64,000 bases of DNA from a virus. Shown in pieces: positions 2 through 53,230 of the stretch. Numbering within the stretch: position 1 is the stretch's first letter; each line of letters begins with the position of its first letter. Made by a program: the position numbers and the translations under genes. A model generated the notes under the pieces. That model saw only the letters and a list, made by a program, of their open reading frames with translations. It was not told where the DNA came from and did no database searches. Location: IMG/VR virus record IMGVR_UViG_3300035565_000042, positions 19,394 through 83,393 of that record, one strand, 5' to 3'.

Positions 2-2080
2 GCTGTAAGTACGGTAAGTCTTGATACTGCATTCCTTGATCTCACAGATACCTTTGCAAGTTATTCCGGGAAAGCTGGCTTTGCTGTTGTTGTTAATTCC
101 GGAGCTACAGGACTGGAAGCTACTGCAAAACCATTTCTGCAAGGAGTAAATGCTGATTTTCAACTGCACGAAATAAAGAACATCGTTATTGATCACGTCA
201 CATCAAATCCAGCAACTCCCTCTGAAGGTCAGTTATGGTACAATACTACAACTCATATACTGAGGTATTATGATGGAACTAACAATATCGATATCACGAA
301 TCTTGGCGGTAACTTTCATTCTCTCTCTTCCTCTTCTTATCTTTCCACTCATGAGATCCCGGTCTATGATACAATAGGTGGTGCTTATCATAAGATAACT
401 CTTGGAGATTTACCAACAACTACAGAATTTGCAGAAATAGATGTAGACAGCGGAGATGACATTGTCGCTTCATCTGAAGGGGTTGTAACACTTGCTGGCG
501 ATGGAGTCCTGGCAACATTTGTAGGATCATTAACTCCGGATACTATTACTCTGACATTGTCAACACAGACAATGAATCTTATCTTTGCCGGCCCTCCAAG
601 TGGATCTGCTGCCAAACCTACATTCAGGGCAATGGTAGATGCTGATCTTCCTTCGAGTTATCATAATGCTGTCTGGGATACTCTCGTATCAACTCCATTG
701 ACTTCTCTTGTACCATATACTGGAGCAACTGCTTCTGTAGATCTTGGTGATCAGACATTGTCAACAACCGGCCGGGCAACGGTTGGTGACATAACGATAG
801 TCAATACTCCGGTTGTCTCAACTGATGCCGCCACAGTAGGATATGTAAATCTTATCGTAGCTCTGGGAATATTCTGGGTTGCAGCTGTTGAGGATATTGT
901 TTCATCATTACCAGGAGGAACACCTGCTTCCGGGCTTCGCTACATACTTTCCACTAATAAAAAAATATATACTGCCAATGGTTCTGGAGGTTATGATACA
1001 CCTTCTGCTACAACAACCGGAACAACTTGTTTCGTTAAGTCAAATGCTGCAGCTCCGACAAATGAAATAGGGCCCTACACATACAATGGATCAGACTGGG
1101 TTTATATTGGAGCCGGCCAGATACATAATGATCTTTCGTCGATACAAGGAGGAACAACTGCAGAATACTATCATCTTACTTTAGCACAACATGCTGTTGC
1201 TATCCAGGCAGCCACGGATAGTCTTAATGGTTATCTTTCTTCTGCAGACTGGTCATACTTCGATTCAAAGGCTGACTATCCTCATGCTCATGATGATGGT
1301 ATCTTTGACTGGAGTATGAGCGGAAATGGATCCTACGTGGCCTACGCTGCGAAATCCGCGGGTTGTTTTGATAGTGGTGCTGTTGCTCCATCGCATACCA
1401 ATCGATTGAATTACGATGGCTATCTGTACGCTACAAAGCTTTATTCAGCCAATACTGAAGTAAGTGTTACCGGACATACTCATGCTGAGTCAACGATAAC
1501 CTTTACAGCGATAACTACAAATAACGTATCAATAACAAAACATGGTTACTGTCCTATTCTTCCTAACGATGCAACAAAGTATCTTGATGGTACGGGTGCC
1601 TGGACGGTTCCGGCAGGAAGTGGTGGCGGATCATCATTATGGTCAAGATCTGGTACTGTACTCTCTACATTGAATGCCGGAGATAAGGTTGCCATAGGAA
1701 GTACAACACCTGGTACATATATGCTTCACGTTACCGGTAATGGTTATTTTACTGGAGCTGTACAGGTAAACTGCGATATCCGGAATAAGATAGTTCTTGG
1801 GCCGGTTGAAGATGTCCTTGACAATATAATGAATATTGAGACCATAAGATTCATATACAAGGATGACGAGTTCAAAGAAAAAAGATGTGGTTTCTCAGCT
1901 CAGAATGTAAATAAGTTTTTCCCTTGTGTCGCTTCTTATTATGAAGAAACAGATCAGTATGGTATCGATCCTATTGGTGTAGGAGCTATGAATACAAAAG
2001 CTATACAGGAGCTCAGGGCCAGGTTTGAAAGAAGACTTGAGTTGCTTGAAAATGAGTTTGCAGATATCATAAGAAGATAA
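2..2080 (+). CDS. Tail fibre/spike protein with C-terminal intramolecular chaperone (peptidase S74-like); 5'-truncated by the window
   Basis: Frame +2 is open from base 2, so the ORF is longer than the 557 start in the track. Gly/Thr/Ser-rich fibre segments. C-terminus CDIRNK...GFSAQ...FP...KAIQEL plus coiled coil matches the S74 chaperone pattern. Confidence 0.8.
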   Translation, partial: AVSTVSLDTAFLDLTDTFASYSGKAGFAVVVNSGATGLEATAKPFLQGVNADFQLHEIKNIVIDHVTSNPATPSEGQLWYNTTTHILRYYDGTNNIDITNLGGNFHSLSSSSYLSTHEIPVYDTIGGAYHKITLGDLPTTTEFAEIDVDSGDDIVASSEGVVTLAGDGVLATFVGSLTPDTITLTLSTQTMNLIFAGPPSGSAAKPTFRAMVDADLPSSYHNAVWDTLVSTPLTSLVPYTGATASVDLGDQTLSTTGRATVGDITIVNTPVVSTDAATVGYVNLIVALGIFWVAAVEDIVSSLPGGTPASGLRYILSTNKKIYTANGSGGYDTPSATTTGTTCFVKSNAAAPTNEIGPYTYNGSDWVYIGAGQIHNDLSSIQGGTTAEYYHLTLAQHAVAIQAATDSLNGYLSSADWSYFDSKADYPHAHDDGIFDWSMSGNGSYVAYAAKSAGCFDSGAVAPSHTNRLNYDGYLYATKLYSANTEVSVTGHTHAESTITFTAITTNNVSITKHGYCPILPNDATKYLDGTGAWTVPAGSGGGSSLWSRSGTVLSTLNAGDKVAIGSTTPGTYMLHVTGNGYFTGAVQVNCDIRNKIVLGPVEDVLDNIMNIETIRFIYKDDEFKEKRCGFSAQNVNKFFPCVASYYEETDQYGIDPIGVGAMNTKAIQELRARFERRLELLENEFADIIRR

Positions 2081-7420: not shown

Positions 7421-8375
7421 TTATAAAAGAATATATCTTTGATTCATCAACACTAAGAAGATCTCTGGTTACTGATAATTCATCAACAACAGTATACTTC
7501 AGCTGACCTCTTATTCCTTTCCCTGCATCAGCAACTACAGCTTCATTAGCTTTATCTTCTTTCTTTATCGCTCTTCCAATCTTCTTATCTGTTGTTTCAA
7601 AGTTCTCCTTACTCTCAACTTCGGCTGCAGCACGTTTCTCGGATATCTTCTCAAGAGCCTTTGTTCTCTGATATGGTTCCAGGTGTTCAGCTTCGATGAT
7701 CAGAAGGCTTGCCTTGTGTTCAGCCAGGCGTTTGCGTATCTTGCGTACCATTTCGCTGTAAAGCTCGGAAAAATATTTGAATGTCTCTTCTTTGGGAAGA
7801 CTTCCGTCAAGCCATGTGGAAAGATCATCACAGTCAGAAGATTTGATACAGCCGGAACTTTGTTTGTTCTCCCCATTCTTGTTCTGCCAGTTGCCACCAT
7901 ATATCCTGGCATTAAGCTGGACTTCAATCCTGTTGATCTTGGCATTTTCTTCAGTCATCTCTGCCTGTTTGACCTCAAGTTCCTTGTCCTTTGCTTCTTT
8001 CTCAACTCTGGCTGCAGCTTCCTGGACGACCTTATAGTTAGCGATCTCTGAAGTGATACGGACCTTGATCCGTGTAAGCATATCGGTGACAGTCTTGAAA
8101 TAACTGTCAATAGCTTTTGATGTGGCCAGATATGGTTCTTTCAGTATTACGCGAGTATTCTCAACTTCCTTGAGATAACCAACTACGTTTGCCGCATTGT
8201 TTTCGGCTATTGTCAGGATCTCCGGAGTGGTGATCTTCAGTTCAAGACTCATCTTGTCAAGTTCAGGAAGTTTATCCTGGATGATCTTGACCTTAGATGC
8301 CATTGTTTCTACCGGCATCAGTGATTCAGTTTTCTTTACTGCCTTGGTTGTTTCTTTGTCTTTAGTTGCTTTCAT
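7323..8375 (-). CDS. Coiled-coil phage protein
   Basis: 350-aa E/K-rich ORF ending in ...ETLPGIKFY, a C-terminal motif common in phage coiled-coil proteins. Confidence 0.5.
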   Translation of the reverse strand: MKATKDKETTKAVKKTESLMPVETMASKVKIIQDKLPELDKMSLELKITTPEILTIAENNAANVVGYLKEVENTRVILKEPYLATSKAIDSYFKTVTDMLTRIKVRITSEIANYKVVQEAAARVEKEAKDKELEVKQAEMTEENAKINRIEVQLNARIYGGNWQNKNGENKQSSGCIKSSDCDDLSTWLDGSLPKEETFKYFSELYSEMVRKIRKRLAEHKASLLIIEAEHLEPYQRTKALEKISEKRAAAEVESKENFETTDKKIGRAIKKEDKANEAVVADAGKGIRGQLKYTVVDELSVTRDLLSVDESKIYSFINENREKIKEDLHSGRETLPGIKFYIDDQYVVR

Positions 8376-8547
8376 GATTATTACTTATTGTACATTATAG
8401 TTTAATTGTTTCGATTTGTGCAGGTATGTAGACAATAACGGGGTCGGATTATGGAATAATTTATCTTCAATCTCTATCAGTCTTGCCTTTGGATGCACTG
8501 TTGCTCCATAATGACGTAGTTTTCGATGAAGATAATACCTACTTGCA

Positions 8548-22526: not shown

Positions 22527-22582
22527 CTTATGAAATTATGTTGGTTAGACGATCAGAAAATACAGAAATAGAATAATTTTAT

Positions 22583-25303: not shown

Positions 25304-25328
25304 CTCTCTATAATTTAGTTTAACACTA

Positions 25329-25346
25329 TTGTTCACTCGGAAATCA
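25329..25346 (+). repeat. 18-bp direct repeat, copy 1
   Basis: TTGTTCACTCGGAAATCA, identical to 25822-25839. Confidence 0.85.
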
Positions 25347-25829
25347 CTCGGCTTCACCTTTATATTTTTTGTAACTGAAAATCTGTGGCTTAATGCCTTC
25401 TCGCCTTAATATAGAATACATGAGGCGTTGCTCCTCGTAGGCACTATGCTCTTGCTGTTTTGCTGGTATAATCTCTTTGATAACTCCCGATGCGCTTATG
25501 TAAAGCAACCCCCAATCTTTAGGTAGTTCAGATTCTTTTATCATGCCTTCGGGACATAAATAACTCCGATATTTACCCAATCCAAATTCAGGGCGCCTTC
25601 TCCAGTATTTCTTTTTATCTGAAAGAAAGTCTGCTCTCGAAATCTTTACCTCGATTAATTGAGTTGACCCCCAGCTAAAGCCAAAAGCATCGGGACTTTC
25701 ACCAACCCTTTCCAACTCACAAACCACATACGGACAAGTGTGGAATGGTTGAATGCCTTGTTTCCGCAAGTAGGATGCAGCCTTAAAACAAAGTTCCCTA
25801 TGTGTAAATGATTTATTCATTTTGTTCAC
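25344..25829 (-). CDS. PD-(D/E)XK nuclease-like (MmcB-like) protein
   Basis: GESPDAFGF...LIEVKISRADFLSDKKK...ELPKDWGLL. Confidence 0.7.
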   Translation of the reverse strand: MNKMNKSFTHRELCFKAASYLRKQGIQPFHTCPYVVCELERVGESPDAFGFSWGSTQLIEVKISRADFLSDKKKYWRRRPEFGLGKYRSYLCPEGMIKESELPKDWGLLYISASGVIKEIIPAKQQEHSAYEEQRLMYSILRREGIKPQIFSYKKYKGEAE

Positions 25830-30593: not shown

Positions 30594-30794
30594 TTAGTTG
30601 TTTTCTGTAAGCAGAAGATCTGCAGCCTTCAGAAATGTTTCATCTGAATATTCTTTATCACCAGTACGGTCAAGAAGCTCAAATACCTGATTATTTTTCT
30701 TCAGTGCATCTTCAAAGATATGATCAGATAATGATTCTCTGTCTTTAAAGTTTTCTAATAGCCATTTGTGGTAAGCGGTCAGATTTGTTTTCAT
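30594..30794 (-). CDS. Hypothetical protein
   Basis: 66-aa ORF. Confidence 0.45.
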   Translation of the reverse strand: MKTNLTAYHKWLLENFKDRESLSDHIFEDALKKNNQVFELLDRTGDKEYSDETFLKAADLLLTENN

Positions 30795-31200
30795 AAAGAT
30801 ATGTTTTTACTTTTTTCCAATAATCCTTTGTCTTTGGGCCAGAACCATTCCATTTCCTGGCTATTGTCTCCATATCATTCGGCCCTATCTCATTAGCGTA
30901 ATATAGAAACACTTTCTCCGCTTTATGATAATCTCTCATCTCCCAGAGAGTATATCGTATGCCTGTTCGTTTGTAGTAGTCGTTGAGGCGAACCTGTCTT
31001 ATTTGAAAATAACCGAATGCATATTCATTCCAGTTTATCTTCAGAGTATCAAGATTCGTTTCAACTTTACCAATCGCATATATGATTTTCTTATATGGAT
31101 CTATTGCCTTTGCTTTCTCAATATATAGCGTGGTATATCCTGGTGCAAACAGGATCTTGGCTAACATTAGAAAAGCAATGATTAATAGTGCTTGTTTCAT
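30745..31200 (-). CDS. Lysozyme-fold (transglycosylase/i-type lysozyme-like) protein with N-terminal signal/anchor
   Basis: Hydrophobic N-terminus; AIGKVET, AFGYFQI, IARKWNG.GP, YWKKV. Confidence 0.7.
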   Translation of the reverse strand: MKQALLIIAFLMLAKILFAPGYTTLYIEKAKAIDPYKKIIYAIGKVETNLDTLKINWNEYAFGYFQIRQVRLNDYYKRTGIRYTLWEMRDYHKAEKVFLYYANEIGPNDMETIARKWNGSGPKTKDYWKKVKTYLYENKSDRLPQMAIRKL

Positions 31201-31415: not shown

Positions 31416-31988
31416 TTAGCCGTCGATATCTGATGTCTCAACAACTGCAACTGCAGCTTTCTTGAACTGGGATATCCTCAGCTGATCCTTGCCTTCATAG
31501 GGCTCATTGGTGACGTTCACAATGAATTCCTTCTTCTCGGCAATGATTGCATCCAGATCTTCGATACCGGAACCTTCTGCCATTCCCAGTGCAGCAAACA
31601 GCTGGTCCATGATGCCTTCGCATACGGCTGTGTTTGCAGGATCAGGAATTCTGTTCAGTTCCTTGGATTTCGGGTTGACAGCGCAGGCATAGCCTGATAC
31701 GTCTGTGAACTTTCCGCTTTCGATCTCTGCAGCTGAGAGCTTGCTGAATGGTACATAACCTTCCAGGTTGAGCCTGTGGGTTAATCCACCTTTACCTTCA
31801 GTGCTGACAACTGTTATTGCAAGCTGTTCGCAAGGGTTGGTGTAGTCCGGAAGAGTCTCTTTGAGGGTTCCGTCATAGTTGTGAAACGAATCAGTCGGCC
31901 TGAATGATACGAGCCTGACTTTGTTGGCACCGGTAGGCAGTTTTGCGAATACCGGGGTCTTGCTCTTGTAAGAAGCGATTTTTGTCAT
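31416..31988 (-). CDS. Putative OB-fold ssDNA-binding protein (DUF669-like), copy A
   Basis: LPTGANKVRLVS...FIVNVTNEPYEGKDQLRISQF with acidic tail; paralog of 34009-34581. Confidence 0.5.
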   Translation of the reverse strand: MTKIASYKSKTPVFAKLPTGANKVRLVSFRPTDSFHNYDGTLKETLPDYTNPCEQLAITVVSTEGKGGLTHRLNLEGYVPFSKLSAAEIESGKFTDVSGYACAVNPKSKELNRIPDPANTAVCEGIMDQLFAALGMAEGSGIEDLDAIIAEKKEFIVNVTNEPYEGKDQLRISQFKKAAVAVVETSDIDG

Positions 31989-32054
31989 TTTCTTTCTTTT
32001 TGGTTAGACAATTTGAAAATACTCATGATAAAATAATTTACTGGCACATATATC

Positions 32055-32112
32055 AAAAAAGACGCGGGGGGATCATTGAGAAGGTTAACTCAATAATCGA
32101 CAACCCGCGTCT
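32055..32112 (-). terminator. Long hairpin + U tract upstream of copy A
   Basis: AGACGCGGG...CCCGCGTCT outer stem, inner ATTGAG/CTCAAT stem, followed by T6 on the minus strand. Confidence 0.7.
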
Positions 32113-32401
32113 AAAATAAGTCATTGTCTCTGGTCCTCAGGAACGTCTTTCTGGCATTGTTCAGATACCACATCGGACGTGACCTGTCTCACCATTGTGC
32201 ATAACACTTCCTCTGCATTGAATTTATGTACCGTTAACGTTAACGGAACTGCCGTTAAATCTTTATCGGTTGACCGTGTCTTGGTCTATTCCGGTATTTC
32301 ACCGGTGTGAAAGTCTAAACAGGCAATTAAACCTGAAATTATGCGACAATAACTCATCGGTTAATTAACCAATAATCGGGAATAAAATAATTTCTTTGCT
32401 A

Positions 32402-32563
32402 TTACTTTCCTCTCTTTTTATGAGGAAACCTGGCACGCATGTTATTTTCTCTTTTACTCTCCTGAGCTGTCATATACTCATGAAGGTCTTTAGCGCCAGA
32501 TGGCGTGAATATATGTCTGCTTTTCAGAAAAGCAAACGTATCCTTGTTACTGAGCTTTGCCAT
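32402..32563 (-). CDS. Small hypothetical protein (53 aa, below ORF-track cutoff)
   Basis: MAKLSNKDTFAFLKSRHIFTPSG...KKRGK*, directly after the 32568 gene. Confidence 0.45.
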   Translation of the reverse strand: MAKLSNKDTFAFLKSRHIFTPSGAKDLHEYMTAQESKRENNMRARFPHKKRGK

Positions 32564-32567
32564 GATA

Positions 32568-32909
32568 TTATTTGTCTTTTATTAAAAGTTTACAAACTGG
32601 TGAATTCACATACCCTGTCCTCACATACCTGACAGGATCCGATATTATCCCTGCCTCAACAAGTACTGCCAGCATCCCTTCATTCTCACTGTAGTCCTTG
32701 ATGATTACTTCATCATCTGTCATCATCTCTGCCGGCAGGTTTATAGTTGCCACAGCTATATCCTCCATTCCCGGATATGCTATATAGTCATCCTCCCGTA
32801 TGGTATTGGCATTTACCAGGACTATTGCCTTCCTTCCATTGCCATACTCCCTGAGCTGTACATTACACAGCCACTGCCTGAACTGTACCTTCTTCCCTGT
32901 TTCCACCAT
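32568..32909 (-). CDS. DUF4313-like protein
   Basis: ATINLP...IIKDYSENEGML..L..AGII...GYV..PVC. Confidence 0.6.
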   Translation of the reverse strand: MVETGKKVQFRQWLCNVQLREYGNGRKAIVLVNANTIREDDYIAYPGMEDIAVATINLPAEMMTDDEVIIKDYSENEGMLAVLVEAGIISDPVRYVRTGYVNSPVCKLLIKDK

Positions 32910-33120
32910 GACTCAGACCCTCGCATGTTTGTTACTGTTCCTTACATACTTCACTACTGTTATAACAAAGTATGCCACTATCAGTACTGCAGAAGTGATC
33001 TCAATCACTCCCCCTGCATTGCAAGCTATTGTTTCCATCTTTTTCTTCTCTTTGGTTAGACTTTATTATTACTCTATTCATCAATTAACAAAGATAAAAT
33101 AATTACTCTGATATCCTCCC

Positions 33121-34008: not shown

Positions 34009-34581
34009 TTAGCTATCGATGTCTGAAGTCTCGGCTTTCTTGACTGCGACCTTGCCAAACCTCGAGATACGAAGCTGATCACGTCCCTCGAATGGTTCAT
34101 TGGTCACATTGACCGTGAAAGCTTTCTTTTCAGCGATGGCATTGTCGAGTGCCTCGATGCCACTGCCCTCAGGCATTCCGAGTGCTGAAAAGAACTGGTC
34201 GAGAATACCCTCGCAAACCTCGGTGTTCTTGTTATCGATGAGCCTGACCAGCTTGTTGGTTTTGCTGTTGAGCATGCAGGCATAGCCATTGACGTCGATG
34301 TACTCACCGGACTCAATCTGCTTTGCAGACAGTTTTGAGAACGGAACATAACCCTCGAGATTCAGCCTGTGTGTCAGACCGCCGTTGCCGGCAACACTGA
34401 CGACTGTGATAGCGAGTTGTTCGCATGGGTTCTCAAACTCCGGAAGGTTTTCTTTCACCGTGCCGTCGTAGTTGTGAAAGCTGTCTGTGTCCTTGTAGGA
34501 AACAAGACGAACTTCATTCTGACCGAGTGGAAGTTTCATGAAGACCGGAGTCTTCGACTTGTAAGAACTGATTTTTGACAT
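34009..34581 (-). CDS. Putative OB-fold ssDNA-binding protein (DUF669-like), copy B
   Basis: 190 aa, gap-free alignment to copy A, about 72% identical by hand count. Confidence 0.5.
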   Translation of the reverse strand: MSKISSYKSKTPVFMKLPLGQNEVRLVSYKDTDSFHNYDGTVKENLPEFENPCEQLAITVVSVAGNGGLTHRLNLEGYVPFSKLSAKQIESGEYIDVNGYACMLNSKTNKLVRLIDNKNTEVCEGILDQFFSALGMPEGSGIEALDNAIAEKKAFTVNVTNEPFEGRDQLRISRFGKVAVKKAETSDIDS

Positions 34582-34662
34582 TGTGTCAGCCCTCCTAAGG
34601 CTGTGTTTTTGGTTAGTACTAAAGAAAAAATGTCAAGTACAAAATAACTTCTGTACAATATC

Positions 34663-34926: not shown

Positions 34927-35084
34927 AATGAGTGAAGATCAGAGATGTGCTTGTCTATTCTCTCTTCTACCATCTTCTTGTCTTCGTAGTTGCGAAGAAT
35001 CTTAACGGTAGCAACGATGTCCTTGCGTTGCGCTCTGCGCTTGGCAATAGGACTGTGAACTGCATAAATGTGTGTCATAATCAT
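34893..35084 (-). CDS. Small hypothetical protein; first gene of the minus arm
   Basis: Preceded by a TAACCAA leader. Confidence 0.4.
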   Translation of the reverse strand: MIMTHIYAVHSPIAKRRAQRKDIVATVKILRNYEDKKMVEERIDKHISDLHSLWFPLGRSRAK

Positions 35085-35265
35085 GATTATTATTGGTTAA
35101 CAGAGATATAATAACTTTCATCCTGTAAGCATTCTTTTTTGGGGCCCCCTTTTGGCAATCAAACACGCCCCCCTGGTCGGTTTCTGTCATAACCACATCA
35201 AAAATGCCAATATTAGGTCAGGGATGCGTTTTTACACAAAAAAAATAATAGGGATGTTAATAAGT

Positions 35266-35298
35266 AGTTATCTACTTGTGATTGCGGAGTGGATAACT
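35266..35298. promoter_or_regulatory. Paired 11-bp boxes, locus 3 (inverted)
   Basis: AGTTATCTACT (35266) and AGTGGATAACT (35288), 22 bp apart, in the divergent intergenic region. Confidence 0.6.
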
Positions 35299-35330
35299 TG
35301 TAATATATTCGCGAGAAGAAAAGGAAGACA

Positions 35331-35717
35331 ATGGAAGAGAAGGAAAGGAAGTTTGTATATCCAGCAGTAAGGATCAATCAGGTATGGTTGGACAGGGACC
35401 ACATGATACTAAGAATGGAGACATGGTTAAGGAAGAAAGAGAGAGGGTTCTTGGGTATTTGGAAAGGGAAGTGGTATCTTCAGAGGTTTTGGAGTGAGTA
35501 TATCATAACTGATGGTACAGATGGGATAATAGCAAGTATGAGTCAGTTTCATGCTACGGTATATAAGTCTGTCATATGTGGGAGAGTTGACAGGAAGATA
35601 GTATTCCCGGGGATTGATGGTCCGGCAAGGAGATTGTTTGAAGATGATCCGGAGCAGATAGATGAGAGGGAAAGGATTGGTGATGGTTTAAGCGGGAGGA
35701 AACATGGCAACAAATAA
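35331..35717 (+). CDS. Hypothetical protein; first gene of the plus arm
   Basis: 128-aa ORF, purine-rich coding strand. Confidence 0.55.
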   Translation: MEEKERKFVYPAVRINQVWLDRDHMILRMETWLRKKERGFLGIWKGKWYLQRFWSEYIITDGTDGIIASMSQFHATVYKSVICGRVDRKIVFPGIDGPARRLFEDDPEQIDERERIGDGLSGRKHGNK

Positions 35718-35958
35718 GTATCATTTGACGGTATATATTAGGCCTGACATACAGAAGAAGTTGAGGTACCTGTGGTTACTGAGCAGGAAGGATGGTCTGG
35801 GGAATGGTGTTGTAGGTAGGAAGAAACTCAAGTTTGGTGAGTTTATTGAGACGGTGATGGAGGAATACCTGGCGAAGAGAAAGGGGATACTGGACAAGTT
35901 GCTTAGTGTGGAGCATGAGGTACTGAGTAGGGAAGAGGAAACTACAAAAGTAGAATAA
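35704..35958 (+). CDS. Putative ribbon-helix-helix DNA-binding protein
   Basis: HLTVYIRPDIQKKLRYL...FGEFIETVMEEYL has the RHH strand-helix-helix pattern. Confidence 0.5.
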   Translation: MATNKYHLTVYIRPDIQKKLRYLWLLSRKDGLGNGVVGRKKLKFGEFIETVMEEYLAKRKGILDKLLSVEHEVLSREEETTKVE

Positions 35959-35999
35959 AAATTATTTTACTTTCGTGGATATTAAAACTGAAAAAAGAT

Positions 36000-36365
36000 T
36001 TGTTTATGGGAATAGATAATCAACAGATGGGAAGTAAGAAGGCAGAGTTATATTATGTAAAGACCAGGGGGATCAGGTATACCGAGCAGGAAGCATCAGA
36101 TCATGGCATCAAGAGAGTGTACAACTACACCAGCGAACTTGAGTTCATGAATGATGAAGACATAGATGGCTGGGTAAAGGGATTGTATGATCCGCGGCAT
36201 AGTGAAGCTGTACTGGTAGAGAGCGCCATAAAGACGATCAATGGAGTTCCCTTGTACATTATGACCTGTATAGTATTCATGTCCATTGAGGGATGTAATC
36301 TGTATTATCTGAGATACCAGAGTGATTTCAAGGAGAACAAGGGATTTGCACATTTACTGAACTAA
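36000..36365 (+). CDS. Hypothetical protein
   Basis: 121-aa ORF. Confidence 0.5.
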   Translation: MFMGIDNQQMGSKKAELYYVKTRGIRYTEQEASDHGIKRVYNYTSELEFMNDEDIDGWVKGLYDPRHSEAVLVESAIKTINGVPLYIMTCIVFMSIEGCNLYYLRYQSDFKENKGFAHLLN

Positions 36366-36394
36366 TTTTTTATATAAACTTAACAATTGTAGTT

Positions 36395-36688
36395 ATGAGT
36401 GAAGAGAAGGAAATTGCACCAAGTAAACCGATATTATTGGAACTGGACTCTATTCGTAAGGATCTGTACGAACTTTCAGATTGCAGATCATCTTTGGAAC
36501 AGATACTTGATCGTTTGCAATCGAATGATAATTTAAACAATCAGTTAAAAGAGGTACCTGACACTGCTAAAGAGAAGGACTGGGATCAGATGTCTATAAA
36601 CGAGAAAGTAACATCTCTCAGAAAAATTTCATCCATACTCTCTCATAAGTTTGGTGAGCTTCACCAGCGGATAGATAGCGCGATTTGA
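36395..36688 (+). CDS. Hypothetical coiled-coil protein
   Basis: 97-aa ORF. Confidence 0.55.
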   Translation: MSEEKEIAPSKPILLELDSIRKDLYELSDCRSSLEQILDRLQSNDNLNNQLKEVPDTAKEKDWDQMSINEKVTSLRKISSILSHKFGELHQRIDSAI

Positions 36689-36734
36689 TCAGTAGCAAGA
36701 AAATTATTATTCTTTCGGGATATATCGAATTTGA

Positions 36735-36847
36735 TAAAGCATACTGTTTTTGGTTAGACAGCAGTCAGGGGCCCGGCACTAAGGTAGCGAAGTGAGACAT
36801 TGGTTGACGACAACATATTAAAGTCCGGGCCACTGACATATTTTTTG
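36735..36847 (+). ncRNA. Candidate antisense sRNA
   Basis: Intergenic; CUGUUU-UUGGUU-AGACAG hairpin, then a branched GUCAGGGGCCCGG/CCGGGCCACUGAC stem and U tract. Confidence 0.45.
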
Positions 36848-36912
36848 ATTACAAGAAAAAAAGTTTAACTTTGATCCTCGATTGATCGATCGTTAAACTA
36901 AACTTAAGCGTC

Positions 36913-37089
36913 ATGACAAAGAAAAAAGATCCAGGCGAACTAAAGAGGAAACCGAAAGGTTCAGTAGTTCCGGTGCCAAAGAAAGAAACCAGTGCTTCTA
37001 AAACAAAGAAAGTTTCAGTATCAGCACCTAATCCTGATGGTATCCTTACGCCAAAGAACAAGGCTCATGTACATACCTTGAGTGAGTAG
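36913..37089 (+). CDS. Small Lys/Pro-rich basic protein (58 aa, missed by ORF track)
   Basis: MTKKKDPGELKRKPKGSVVPVPKKETSASKTKKV...; TAACTTTG -7 box at 36866 and terminator at 37103. Confidence 0.6.
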   Translation: MTKKKDPGELKRKPKGSVVPVPKKETSASKTKKVSVSAPNPDGILTPKNKAHVHTLSE

Positions 37090-37102
37090 CAATGCGTTGA
37101 AC

Positions 37103-37140
37103 AGCCCGGAAAGAGTATATTCTGCCGGGCTTATTTTTTT
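37103..37140 (+). terminator. Intrinsic terminator
   Basis: AGCCCGG...CCGGGCT followed by T tract. Confidence 0.8.
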
Positions 37141-37168
37141 ATTTTTTGAACCATTAATTGTTATTGTT

Positions 37169-38194
37169 ATGCATATCAGTAAATTTAAACTCATCCGCGG
37201 TGGATTGGATGGAGTAGTAATCTCCGCAATCGAACCGATACCTTGCAAGGGTAACATGCTTATTCTTGATGAGGTACAAAGAACACGCAAGGTGACCCTG
37301 TCATCAGAACTTCGCGAGAAAATCCAGAACCTGAAGTACTTTTATCTCAACCTGACGAGCCACTGGATCCCGCCTTACAACAAGTATTTTGATCTGAACA
37401 AGTATGTGCCAAACATCGTCGACACTACTGCAGAGATGCCTCAGGGCCAGACATTGCTTCATGACATCTGGAACCATACCGAGATAACCGGAGTATCAGT
37501 TACCGATCATGGTTTCGTTATAACCGGTGCAATAGAGACTGTTGAACTCAAGAAGATCGGTATCGTGACTCCGTATATCACGGAAGAAGATGATGTATCA
37601 TTCTTCATCACGGCCATGGATAAGATCAATGAGATCATGAAAGACCTGGTATTCAATCTTGAGAACAATATGCTTCCGGCACATGAAAGCAAGGAGACTC
37701 TCATGGCCCTGAATATTCCTACTGAGGAAAAGATGACCGAAGATGAAGTTCTTGAGAAAGTCATCAACCGGCTTATGGATCGTGGGGCTGTCATTCTCAT
37801 GGATGATAGTGGTTCTCCACAGAAAGAGATACAGGAAAAATCTGAAGGAAAGAGTGAGAAAAAGACCAAGGTTCATACCAACACTAAAAGTATCGACTCT
37901 CATAATATGCCTGACGCTGTCGAAACAACTGAGAAGACAACGGAAGAAGCTAACGAAGAAAAGAATGGAACACCAACTCCTGAAGTTATCAGGAAACCAT
38001 CCAGTTCAACGCTTGCATCAGAGAAAGGATTTCCAGATCTGTCAGGAGACCGACCCTCACCAAATGAAGGCAGCCAGGAGTTTATTCCTGATGGTGGTTC
38101 TCTTGAGCATCTTGAGTTCTCAGACAACATGGGAATATCTCAGGAAGTAGGGCCGGATGATTATCCGAGTTCTCCGGAAGATCTTGATGAATAA
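37169..38194 (+). CDS. Hypothetical protein with acidic disordered C-terminus
   Basis: Start moved to MHISKFKL, after the terminator. Confidence 0.65.
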   Translation: MHISKFKLIRGGLDGVVISAIEPIPCKGNMLILDEVQRTRKVTLSSELREKIQNLKYFYLNLTSHWIPPYNKYFDLNKYVPNIVDTTAEMPQGQTLLHDIWNHTEITGVSVTDHGFVITGAIETVELKKIGIVTPYITEEDDVSFFITAMDKINEIMKDLVFNLENNMLPAHESKETLMALNIPTEEKMTEDEVLEKVINRLMDRGAVILMDDSGSPQKEIQEKSEGKSEKKTKVHTNTKSIDSHNMPDAVETTEKTTEEANEEKNGTPTPEVIRKPSSSTLASEKGFPDLSGDRPSPNEGSQEFIPDGGSLEHLEFSDNMGISQEVGPDDYPSSPEDLDE

Positions 38195-48670: not shown

Positions 48671-48743
48671 TCGTTAGTGTAGGTGCTTGCACCGAATATC
48701 GATACAAAAAAAGTGTTTAGTATTAACCAAAAAAAGAAAGAAA

Positions 48744-53087: not shown

Positions 53088-53230
53088 TAAAATCAATCTC
53101 ATCGGGTTATGTAACTTTTGAATGGGAAGATGGGGAAACGCATTGTCTGACTATTGGTGAGTATAATTGGTTTGCAGAGAAGCATGGATTGGAGAAAGTA
53201 AAATAATTGTAGTTGGTAACGCGCTGATTT

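Follow-up and report, generated by a model that had tools for sequence, protein, structure and literature searches.

What is encoded in the gap between two rightward genes of an uncultured phage, and does it act on messages read from the opposite strand of the same genome? The question is raised by positions 36735-36847 of the stretch of DNA analysed here (hereafter the window: 64,000 nucleotides, bases 19394-83393 of the 83,393-bp virus record IMGVR_UViG_3300035565_000042, for which 123-bp direct terminal repeats are on record), where a preliminary description had proposed a trans-acting small RNA whose hairpin loop is antisense to a leader motif of several phage mRNAs. The source phage belongs to an uncultured crAss-like lineage, and its large terminase is 23-24% identical to crAss-like phage terminases. 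The region has no DNA match among 50,697 GenBank phage records, and two of its proteins that are central here, of 190 and 341 aa, have no protein match in the same 50,697 records. Genes run leftward from 4033 to 35190 and rightward from 35331 onward, and to the left of the window (window coordinates -15538..-1076) lies a single + strand ORF of ~14.4 kb (~4,800 aa). Start codons are mostly without a Shine-Dalgarno sequence and are preceded by A-rich leaders, which fits a Bacteroidota host, and the host is probably a member of this phylum. In Bacteroides, according to the part of PMC7366714 that deals with initiation and promoters, mRNAs lack Shine-Dalgarno sequences, adenines at -11 to -15 favour translation, and the -7 promoter word is TAnnTTTG.

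Two + strand ORFs, 36395..36688 and 36913..37089, leave between them a gap of 224 nt that contains the element and in which the following features can be recognised:

36702-36708 and, 12 nt later, 36721-36728, + strand: an AATTATT box and the -7-like word TATATCGA, together a candidate promoter.
36707..36742, - strand: a mini-ORF of 11 codons that follows the motif on that strand and translates as MLYQIRYIPKE*.
36744-36749/36756-36761, + strand: hairpin 1, a 6-bp stem CUGUUU/AGACAG with one G.U pair and the loop UUGGUU.
36747-36760, + strand: the seed, as DNA TTTTTGGTTAGACA, also written UUUUUGGUUAGACA, the reverse complement of the leader motif UGUCUAACCAAAAA.
36764-36837, + strand: the terminator stem, two-tier and branched, GUCAG/CUGAC and GGCCCGG/CCGGGCC, enclosing ~48 nt.
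36841-36846, + strand: a run of 6 T at the end of the terminator.

Folding reproduced the 5' hairpin with its UUGGUU loop, the branched GC-rich stem and the T run, and the seed has the sequence, strand and position that the preliminary description gave it. The loop of hairpin 1 has an unpaired probability of 0.99, and the G.U pair of its stem becomes a C.A mismatch if the minus strand is read. The element as a whole folds with a minimum free energy of -34.6 kcal/mol (z -3.28), a value equalled by 2 of 200 shuffles. Its G+C-rich stem-loop followed by a U run has the form of an intrinsic (Rho-independent) terminator with an unusually large interior, and it is missing from a simple terminator scan because that scan takes loops of 3-8 nt only. 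The tail TTTTTGAT is also found at other terminators of the phage and is thus no specific shared feature. That the element is non-coding and ends in a + strand terminator, as first described, is borne out: the sole + strand ORF of at least 30 aa in the gap is a TTG-started frame of 36 aa (36685..36795), and no tRNA or tmRNA was found at the element. Nothing in the window reached an Rfam gathering score, and at E up to 10 both this element and its counterpart in a relative (see below) gave chance-level matches to unrelated families only. Membership of the C4 antisense RNA family (P1/P7) was considered and rejected, the covariance model being unmatched at gathering score in the window. The word UUGGUUAGA (window 36750-36759) is like a D-loop word found in many bacterial tRNAs; ARAGORN finds no tRNA at these positions and the likeness is probably a coincidence. 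Elsewhere in the genome, no second anti-leader hairpin stood out.

The seed lies 59 nt past the upstream stop codon and directly ahead of the + strand terminator, and since this terminator is the first after the upstream gene, a + strand RNA that bears the seed is expected whatever the promoter, at least as a 3' UTR. The element may also have a promoter of its own. Here AAAATTATTATTCTTTCGGGATAT begins 14 bases after the stop codon of 36395..36688, and a comparison by eye with the box at 35956, before gene 36006, finds 16 of the first 20 positions identical, plus GGATAT after a 1-nt gap; the window box scores just 9.9 bits (about rank 27) with a position weight matrix made from 10 other boxes. 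If the box is used, the spacing in gene leaders (box, 10-12 nt, -7-like word, 4 nt) would place the start of transcription near 36733-36740, just before hairpin 1. A scan of 35000-38000 found no sigma-70-type site in the gap 36689-36912 on either strand, a consensus that may not apply to the host. Boxes of the type AA[AG]TTATT[TC][TC]A recur 20-70 nt ahead of start codons (e.g. 35960 on the + strand; 32038, 29718, 22578, 17346 and 12041 on the - strand), and the matrix trained on ten boxes finds more of them, at 8465, 14424, 24272, 31251 and 50207, each 39-90 nt ahead of another start codon, so that the box behaves like a promoter element. In three genes (17346, 12041 and 29718) only 20-25 nt separate it from the ATG, and the leaders would then be very short or absent; an antisense copy is seen at 53208 (- strand), between two + strand structural genes.

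Five sites complementary to the seed, of 14, 13, 11, 10 and 10 nt, had been claimed, and all of them are where the preliminary description put them:

31997-32010, - strand: target 1, in the leader of 190-aa paralogue A (31416..31988) at -22 to -9, 14 of 14 positions complementary.
34604-34616, - strand: target 2, in the leader of 190-aa paralogue B (34009..34581) at -35 to -23, 13 nt, pairing with element positions 36745-36757.
33051-33061, - strand: target 3, in the leader ahead of a small-gene group (32913..33038, 32568..32909 and 32402..32563), 11 nt, duplex energy -18.8.
22541-22550, - strand: a weak match of 10 nt in the leader of a 436-aa gene, energy -15.8, at background level.
48724-48733, + strand: a weak match of 10 nt, UAACCAAAAA, in the leader of a + strand 383-aa gene.

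Matches of 14, 13 and 11 nt are thus found at -9 to -35 of three leaders that lie 2.1-4.8 kb from the element. The leaders above background are the two 190-aa paralogue leaders and the 33051 leader only, and to this extent the claim of several targets stands; the 10-nt matches fall at or below the energy background, and the 48724 leader is absent from the 12 best duplex energies, the twelfth of which is -13.8. In gene orientation the sense motif reads GTCTAACCAA(AAA) and occurs in the leaders of both 190-aa paralogues, of the small-gene group from 33038 and of the 436-aa gene. An AA[AG]TTATT box precedes it in all four minus-strand leaders, and a T-rich TATTTTC-like word precedes it in three of the four, the exception being the 33038 leader.

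The motif is far more frequent than expected when exact matches are counted. Four copies of the core 10-mer TTGGTTAGAC are found in the 83-kb genome, where 0.153 would be expected; they are all on the + strand, and 0 of 300 shuffles reach four. The window 14-mer occurs twice against 0.002 expected. GTCTAAC is found four times in the whole genome, against 7.0 expected, and all four copies are in non-coding leaders or in the element. A mismatch-tolerant pattern is not enriched (8 occurrences against 10.5 expected with at most 3 mismatches, and 4 against 3.9 with at most 1). The energies of the seed-target duplexes, calculated from a 26-nt seed window since whole-RNA duplexfold gave implausibly long structures and was discarded, are ordinary: the best hybridisation energy, -20.0, is reached by 34 of 200 shuffled seeds, and the third best, -18.2, by 9 of 200. 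By cofolding, ddG is -12.3 for target 1 and -13.5 for target 2, and the cognate values of -12.3, -13.5 and -15.3 compare with -7.7 and -11.6 for cross pairs. Were transcription of a leader to start inside GTCTAAC, part of the target would lie outside the mRNA.

The two 190-aa paralogues are 72% identical to each other and had been called SSB-like. This label holds weakly: phrog_378 matches 2 of 10 homologues of the protein (best E 0.0046), and its structural match in the Atlas (TM 0.51/0.56) is to a cluster with DUF669 in 62% of its members, but nothing was found in Pfam or PDB, by sequence or by profile. The label GHKL for the 436-aa gene found no support in the searches, and no function was found for the 383-aa, 41-aa, 113-aa and 53-aa genes. 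In the same region, the minus-strand stretch 32055-32392 has the top-scoring box of the genome, with no gene for 408 nt and with serial hairpins, and contains UUGGUUAAUUAACC, which shares UUGGUUA with the seed, and a terminator just before the promoter of paralogue A; it may be a second non-coding RNA. A further leader word, GAGTATAAACCAAAAA, is conserved between the leader of 30745..31200 (- strand) in the window and that of 452..967 (+ strand) in the relative L008 described next, where an exact TAnnTTTG word (TATCTTTG) precedes it; the two genes are presumably orthologous.

A counterpart of the element is found in one relative, L008 (genome G001, IMGVR_UViG_3300044476_000126), whose 190-aa protein is 64% identical to that of the window. 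It lies at 7767-7913 with the same layout, one gene further upstream of the 341-aa gene: an AATTATT box is followed by TTTGTTAGACAATA, by a stem of two tiers (UCGAAAGC/GCUUUCGA and CCGGGAU/AUCCCGG) round ~60 nt, and by a T run. Of the first 24 nt of the L008 segment, 17 agree with the hairpin-1 region of the window. Little of the remaining gap can be aligned, and the proteins encoded on either side either share 44-64% identity or are unalignable. The L008 seed, 20 nt past the upstream stop codon, is complementary at 14 of 14 positions to the leader of that genome's own 190-aa gene, yet the 14-mers of the two genomes differ (TGTCTAACCAAAAA in the window genome vs TATTGTCTAACAAA in G001), and each genome has its own 14-mer twice (0.002 expected) and the 14-mer of the other zero times. 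One pair within the shared core is compensatory: G of the seed faces C of the leader in the window, and U faces A in L008. Beyond the core, the two phages extend the duplex on opposite sides. GTCTAAC occurs twice in G001, against 7.0 expected, only in the leader and the element; it is under-represented in both this genome and the window genome (G000), as if avoided outside leaders and element. Complementarity of seed and target, whose loss in related genomes the preliminary description would have taken as refutation, is thus kept, with changed letters, in one of the three other complete genomes, the element being absent from the other two; the sole relative that has the element shows one compensatory pair and different duplex ends, in a sample of two genomes that is too small for R-scape-type statistics.

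To give a background for these matches, every 60-nt leader was compared with every gap of at least 40 nt on both strands, and G000 and G001 each yielded 3 matches of at least 14 nt in 4,888 comparisons. Of the matches other than that of seed and leader, both in G001 are due to shared AATTATT boxes; in G000 a box read from the opposite strand accounts for one, and the second is an unexplained 15-mer at 25304-25343, in the leader of gene 25344..25820. This background puts the chance for the single pre-specified G001 pair below ~1e-3. Because the core is shared by descent, what counts as independent information is that it has been retained, together with the single compensatory pair and the flanks that are new. 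Of all gene starts that were scored, the 190-aa leader ranks best as a target of the G001 seed (-18.0), and the next two leaders, one of which belongs to a 32%-identical paralogue, carry ATTGTTTAAC and pair through G.U; the exact 12-mer has a single sense target in G001, plus two G.U-tolerant leaders. The 5' hairpins of the window and L008 use non-homologous pairs, so that hairpin 1 is no covarying helix, and MAFFT did not align the stems of the two elements coherently. G.U pairs that work only on the + strand RNA are present in both hairpins and in the lower stem of L008. The L008 box ends 7 nt before the seed; if it stands near -33, as in gene leaders, transcription would start after the seed, and the L008 seed may be part of the 3' UTR of the upstream gene instead of a transcript of its own.

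Beyond these two genomes, the leader motif is more widespread than the element. G002 and G003, at 47% and 43% identity for the 190-aa protein, possess the motif in the leader, or a variant of it, and no antisense copy, which indicates that something other than this RNA keeps the motif conserved; in G002 the second copy forms the sense leader of a gene whose product starts with a signal peptide, as read from its first residues. A survey of 190-aa leaders, with homologues at eight other loci (41-67% identity), finds the box kept in L014, L019, L020, L021-23, L017 and L018 and not in L024-26, and GTCTAAC kept in L014, L020, L021-23 and L017, with TATAACC in L019 and GTCTAC in L018. The motif stands 22-25 nt after the box in the closer genomes and 44-52 nt after it in G002 and G003, with a hairpin between the two in G002; this variable distance and the hairpin argue that the motif is transcribed leader and not core promoter.

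The element was seen neither in L002 nor in the short upstream stretches of L006 and L007, and a pattern scan of viral contigs for the element gave 0 matches. A looser element pattern gave 24 matches, of which only the L008 contig is related, and scans of genome contigs with both protein alignments gave nothing. Three viral-contig matches to a leader 18-mer were discarded, none having tblastx similarity to this genome, and a metagenome scan gave 9 loci, 8 of them short and informative for leaders only. The record of G001 is 94,144 bp long and has the 190-aa locus at both ends (2294 and 91485, an offset of 89,191 bp), so that the unit genome would be ~89 kb and the record terminally redundant; an exact-overlap test of its ends found no perfect terminal repeat.

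For the 341-aa protein, encoded on the other side of the element, 45 relatives are known from databases; apart from the window's own protein none exceeds 51% identity, and several of them are on 82-88-kb contigs. The ~170 nt that are extra in the window are absent just before the 341-aa gene in L002, L006, L007, L008, L009 and L010. All six of these relatives have a conserved module that occupies 36862-37140 in the window, before the 341-aa gene: a promoter-like palindrome of the type GTTTAAC...GTTAAAC, a small ORF rich in Lys (~50-75 aa, beginning MTKKK in several), and a terminator of CCCGGG type with its T run, ~30 nt ahead of the following start codon. From its order of parts, the module looks like an attenuation or antitermination checkpoint ahead of the late block.

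We propose, with an even chance of being right, that the element yields a + strand antisense RNA, whether a separate transcript or the 3' UTR of the gene before it, by which the leaders of the SSB-like paralogues are masked. The segment 36700-36847 would be transcribed into a + strand RNA of ~110-150 nt, either from its own AATTATT-type promoter or as the 3' end of the mRNA of the upstream gene, and this RNA would stop at the long CCGGG terminator. The loop UUGGUU and its flanking bases would then serve as a 14-nt seed that pairs with the A-rich 5' leaders (-9 to -35) of both 190-aa paralogues and of one further minus-strand transcription unit, and pairing would hide the region where ribosomes load, with lower translation or altered mRNA stability as the result. 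We infer transcription, the ends of the RNA, pairing in vivo and the direction of the effect from the sequence. The shut-off of early genes, or the titration of a leader-binding factor, that the preliminary description envisaged would be a further, conjectural step. An antisense RNA would explain why the element is oriented in the same way towards its terminator in the two genomes, why the 14-mers match perfectly within each genome yet differ between them, why the variation seen is of a kind that G.U pairing tolerates, and why the stems have G.U pairs that are possible on the + strand only.

The same motif could instead be a site on DNA. A phage factor, be it a regulator or the 190-aa protein itself, may recognise GTCTAAC-type sites just downstream of several promoters, so that the element would be an extra inverse site by a terminator and its complementarity a by-product. 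We consider this rather unlikely, although it accounts for the place of the sense motif, which is fixed across the 190-aa leaders of 8 loci (where the genomes are closer, 22-25 nt past the AA[AG]TTATT box), for the retention of the motif in G002 without an antisense element, for the lineage-specific flanks shared by the motif family (CAA in the window, TATTGTY in G001) and for the avoidance of GTCTAAC elsewhere in both genomes. The motif is not palindromic, however, and the copy in the element is without the promoter context of the sense copies. Identity at 14 of 14 positions at two sites per genome, with a matched change, would require a new protein specificity and a change of both sites, whereas the C/T variation in G001 leaders opposite the seed G fits RNA pairing. 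A site left behind by recombination with, or duplication of, a leader cassette is an unlikely explanation for the 14-mer, in which case the element would be the ordinary terminator and 3' UTR that end the operon 35331-36688, with no regulatory role. CCCGGG-type terminators with 12-17-nt loops are indeed the rule in the clade, in the distant relatives, which do not have the extra ~170 nt, the stop codon is followed directly by the next promoter-like region, and the duplex energies are unexceptional. Against this, a neutral copy should have decayed at such divergence, yet the 14-mer is perfect in each of the two genomes, against leaders that differ between them.

The preliminary description itself had offered another reading, in which the motif is simply one more leader, ahead of an 11-codon minus-strand ORF. 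The motif would then head a leftward transcript, which would encode the peptide MLYQIRYIPKE or act as antisense RNA to the + strand gene upstream. The ORF does translate as claimed, the motif is in the orientation of all minus-strand leaders, the ATG comes 4 nt past the A run, and the true leaders of G002 have a hairpin directly before GTCTAAC that resembles the order of hairpin then motif seen here. But neither genome has an AATTATT box or a T-rich -7-like word upstream on the minus strand, where a G+C-rich stem is found instead, and in L008 there is no start codon within ~40 nt of the motif, so that the mini-ORF is unconserved. These two findings speak against a minus-strand leader with a small ORF; the flanking genes are on the + strand in both genomes and the G.U pairs of the stems favour the + strand, and we hold any minus-strand function of this kind to be very unlikely.

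If the antisense RNA is accepted, it may be compared with known systems. Examples of phage-encoded RNAs directed in trans against mRNAs of the phage itself come from a few temperate coliphages, and a literature search found no paper linking crAss-like phages with sRNAs. Cis-antisense RNAs of the OOP/sar type are encoded opposite their target, with full-length complementarity; this class was rejected, since the targets at 31997, 33051 and 34604 are not opposite the element and the complementarity is just 11-14 nt. Enterobacteria have base-pairing sRNAs derived from 3' UTRs, of the CpxQ and SroC type, and the element is like them in that its seed follows the stop codon of a protein-coding gene closely (by 59 nt in the window and 20 nt in L008) and comes shortly before that gene's terminator. 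Phage SSB leaders can serve as translational operators, as in the autoregulation of T4 gene 32 and in control by RegA. The likeness is that the gene that would be regulated is a probable SSB, with control at the 5' leader; there, however, proteins act, whereas here the candidate is a leader-complementary RNA encoded elsewhere in the genome. Closest in function is the c4 RNA of P1/P7, which, as set out in the portion of PMC5320573 devoted to it (citing Citron & Schuster 1990), acts in trans on a leader of the phage's own mRNA, where its exposed loops occlude ribosome binding; related phages differ in RNA and target at a few matched positions, and these differences determine specificity. The candidate shares with c4, as that portion of PMC5320573 presents it, a phage-encoded RNA acting in trans, a loop directed against the phage's own leader, and matched changes between relatives, but by the Rfam searches the element has no similarity to c4 in sequence or structure. 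Moreover, c4 is described there as cut by RNase P from the operon transcript of its own target and as serving lysogenic immunity, whereas the targets of the element are 2-5 kb off and on the other strand. The sRNA GibS of Bacteroides thetaiotaomicron pairs with initiation regions through an extended seed, in the account of it within PMC7366714, and judged by that account the likeness lies in the Bacteroidota setting without Shine-Dalgarno sequences, the extended A/U-rich seed, and the intergenic unit with an intrinsic terminator. GibS differs in being encoded by the host, and the two are not homologous; its seed is an unstructured 5' end according to the same account in PMC7366714, whereas that of the element is partly in a hairpin. 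The putative RNA is hence best filed as a base-pairing regulatory RNA encoded by a phage, a known kind, but one unrelated to the known members.

The antisense reading may be extended, tentatively, to a small RNA regulon, which we consider possible but doubtful: transcripts of the replication region would share a 5' tag (GUCUAAC with lineage-specific flanks), and one phage RNA, its seed evolving in step, would switch the translation of all of them at once, for instance at the change to rightward (late) transcription. If true, this would amount to RNA-based temporal control in a lytic crAss-like group without a described riboregulator. Should the antisense RNA not be real, the conserved GTCTAAC leader tag would still be an unexplained control element of the SSB-like genes. 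If it is real, the window phage and G001 would provide natural orthogonal sets of seed and target for compensatory tests, the leaders would give a view of how initiation is controlled without Shine-Dalgarno sequences, and the element would make post-transcriptional timing open to test in an uncultured lineage of crAss-like phages.
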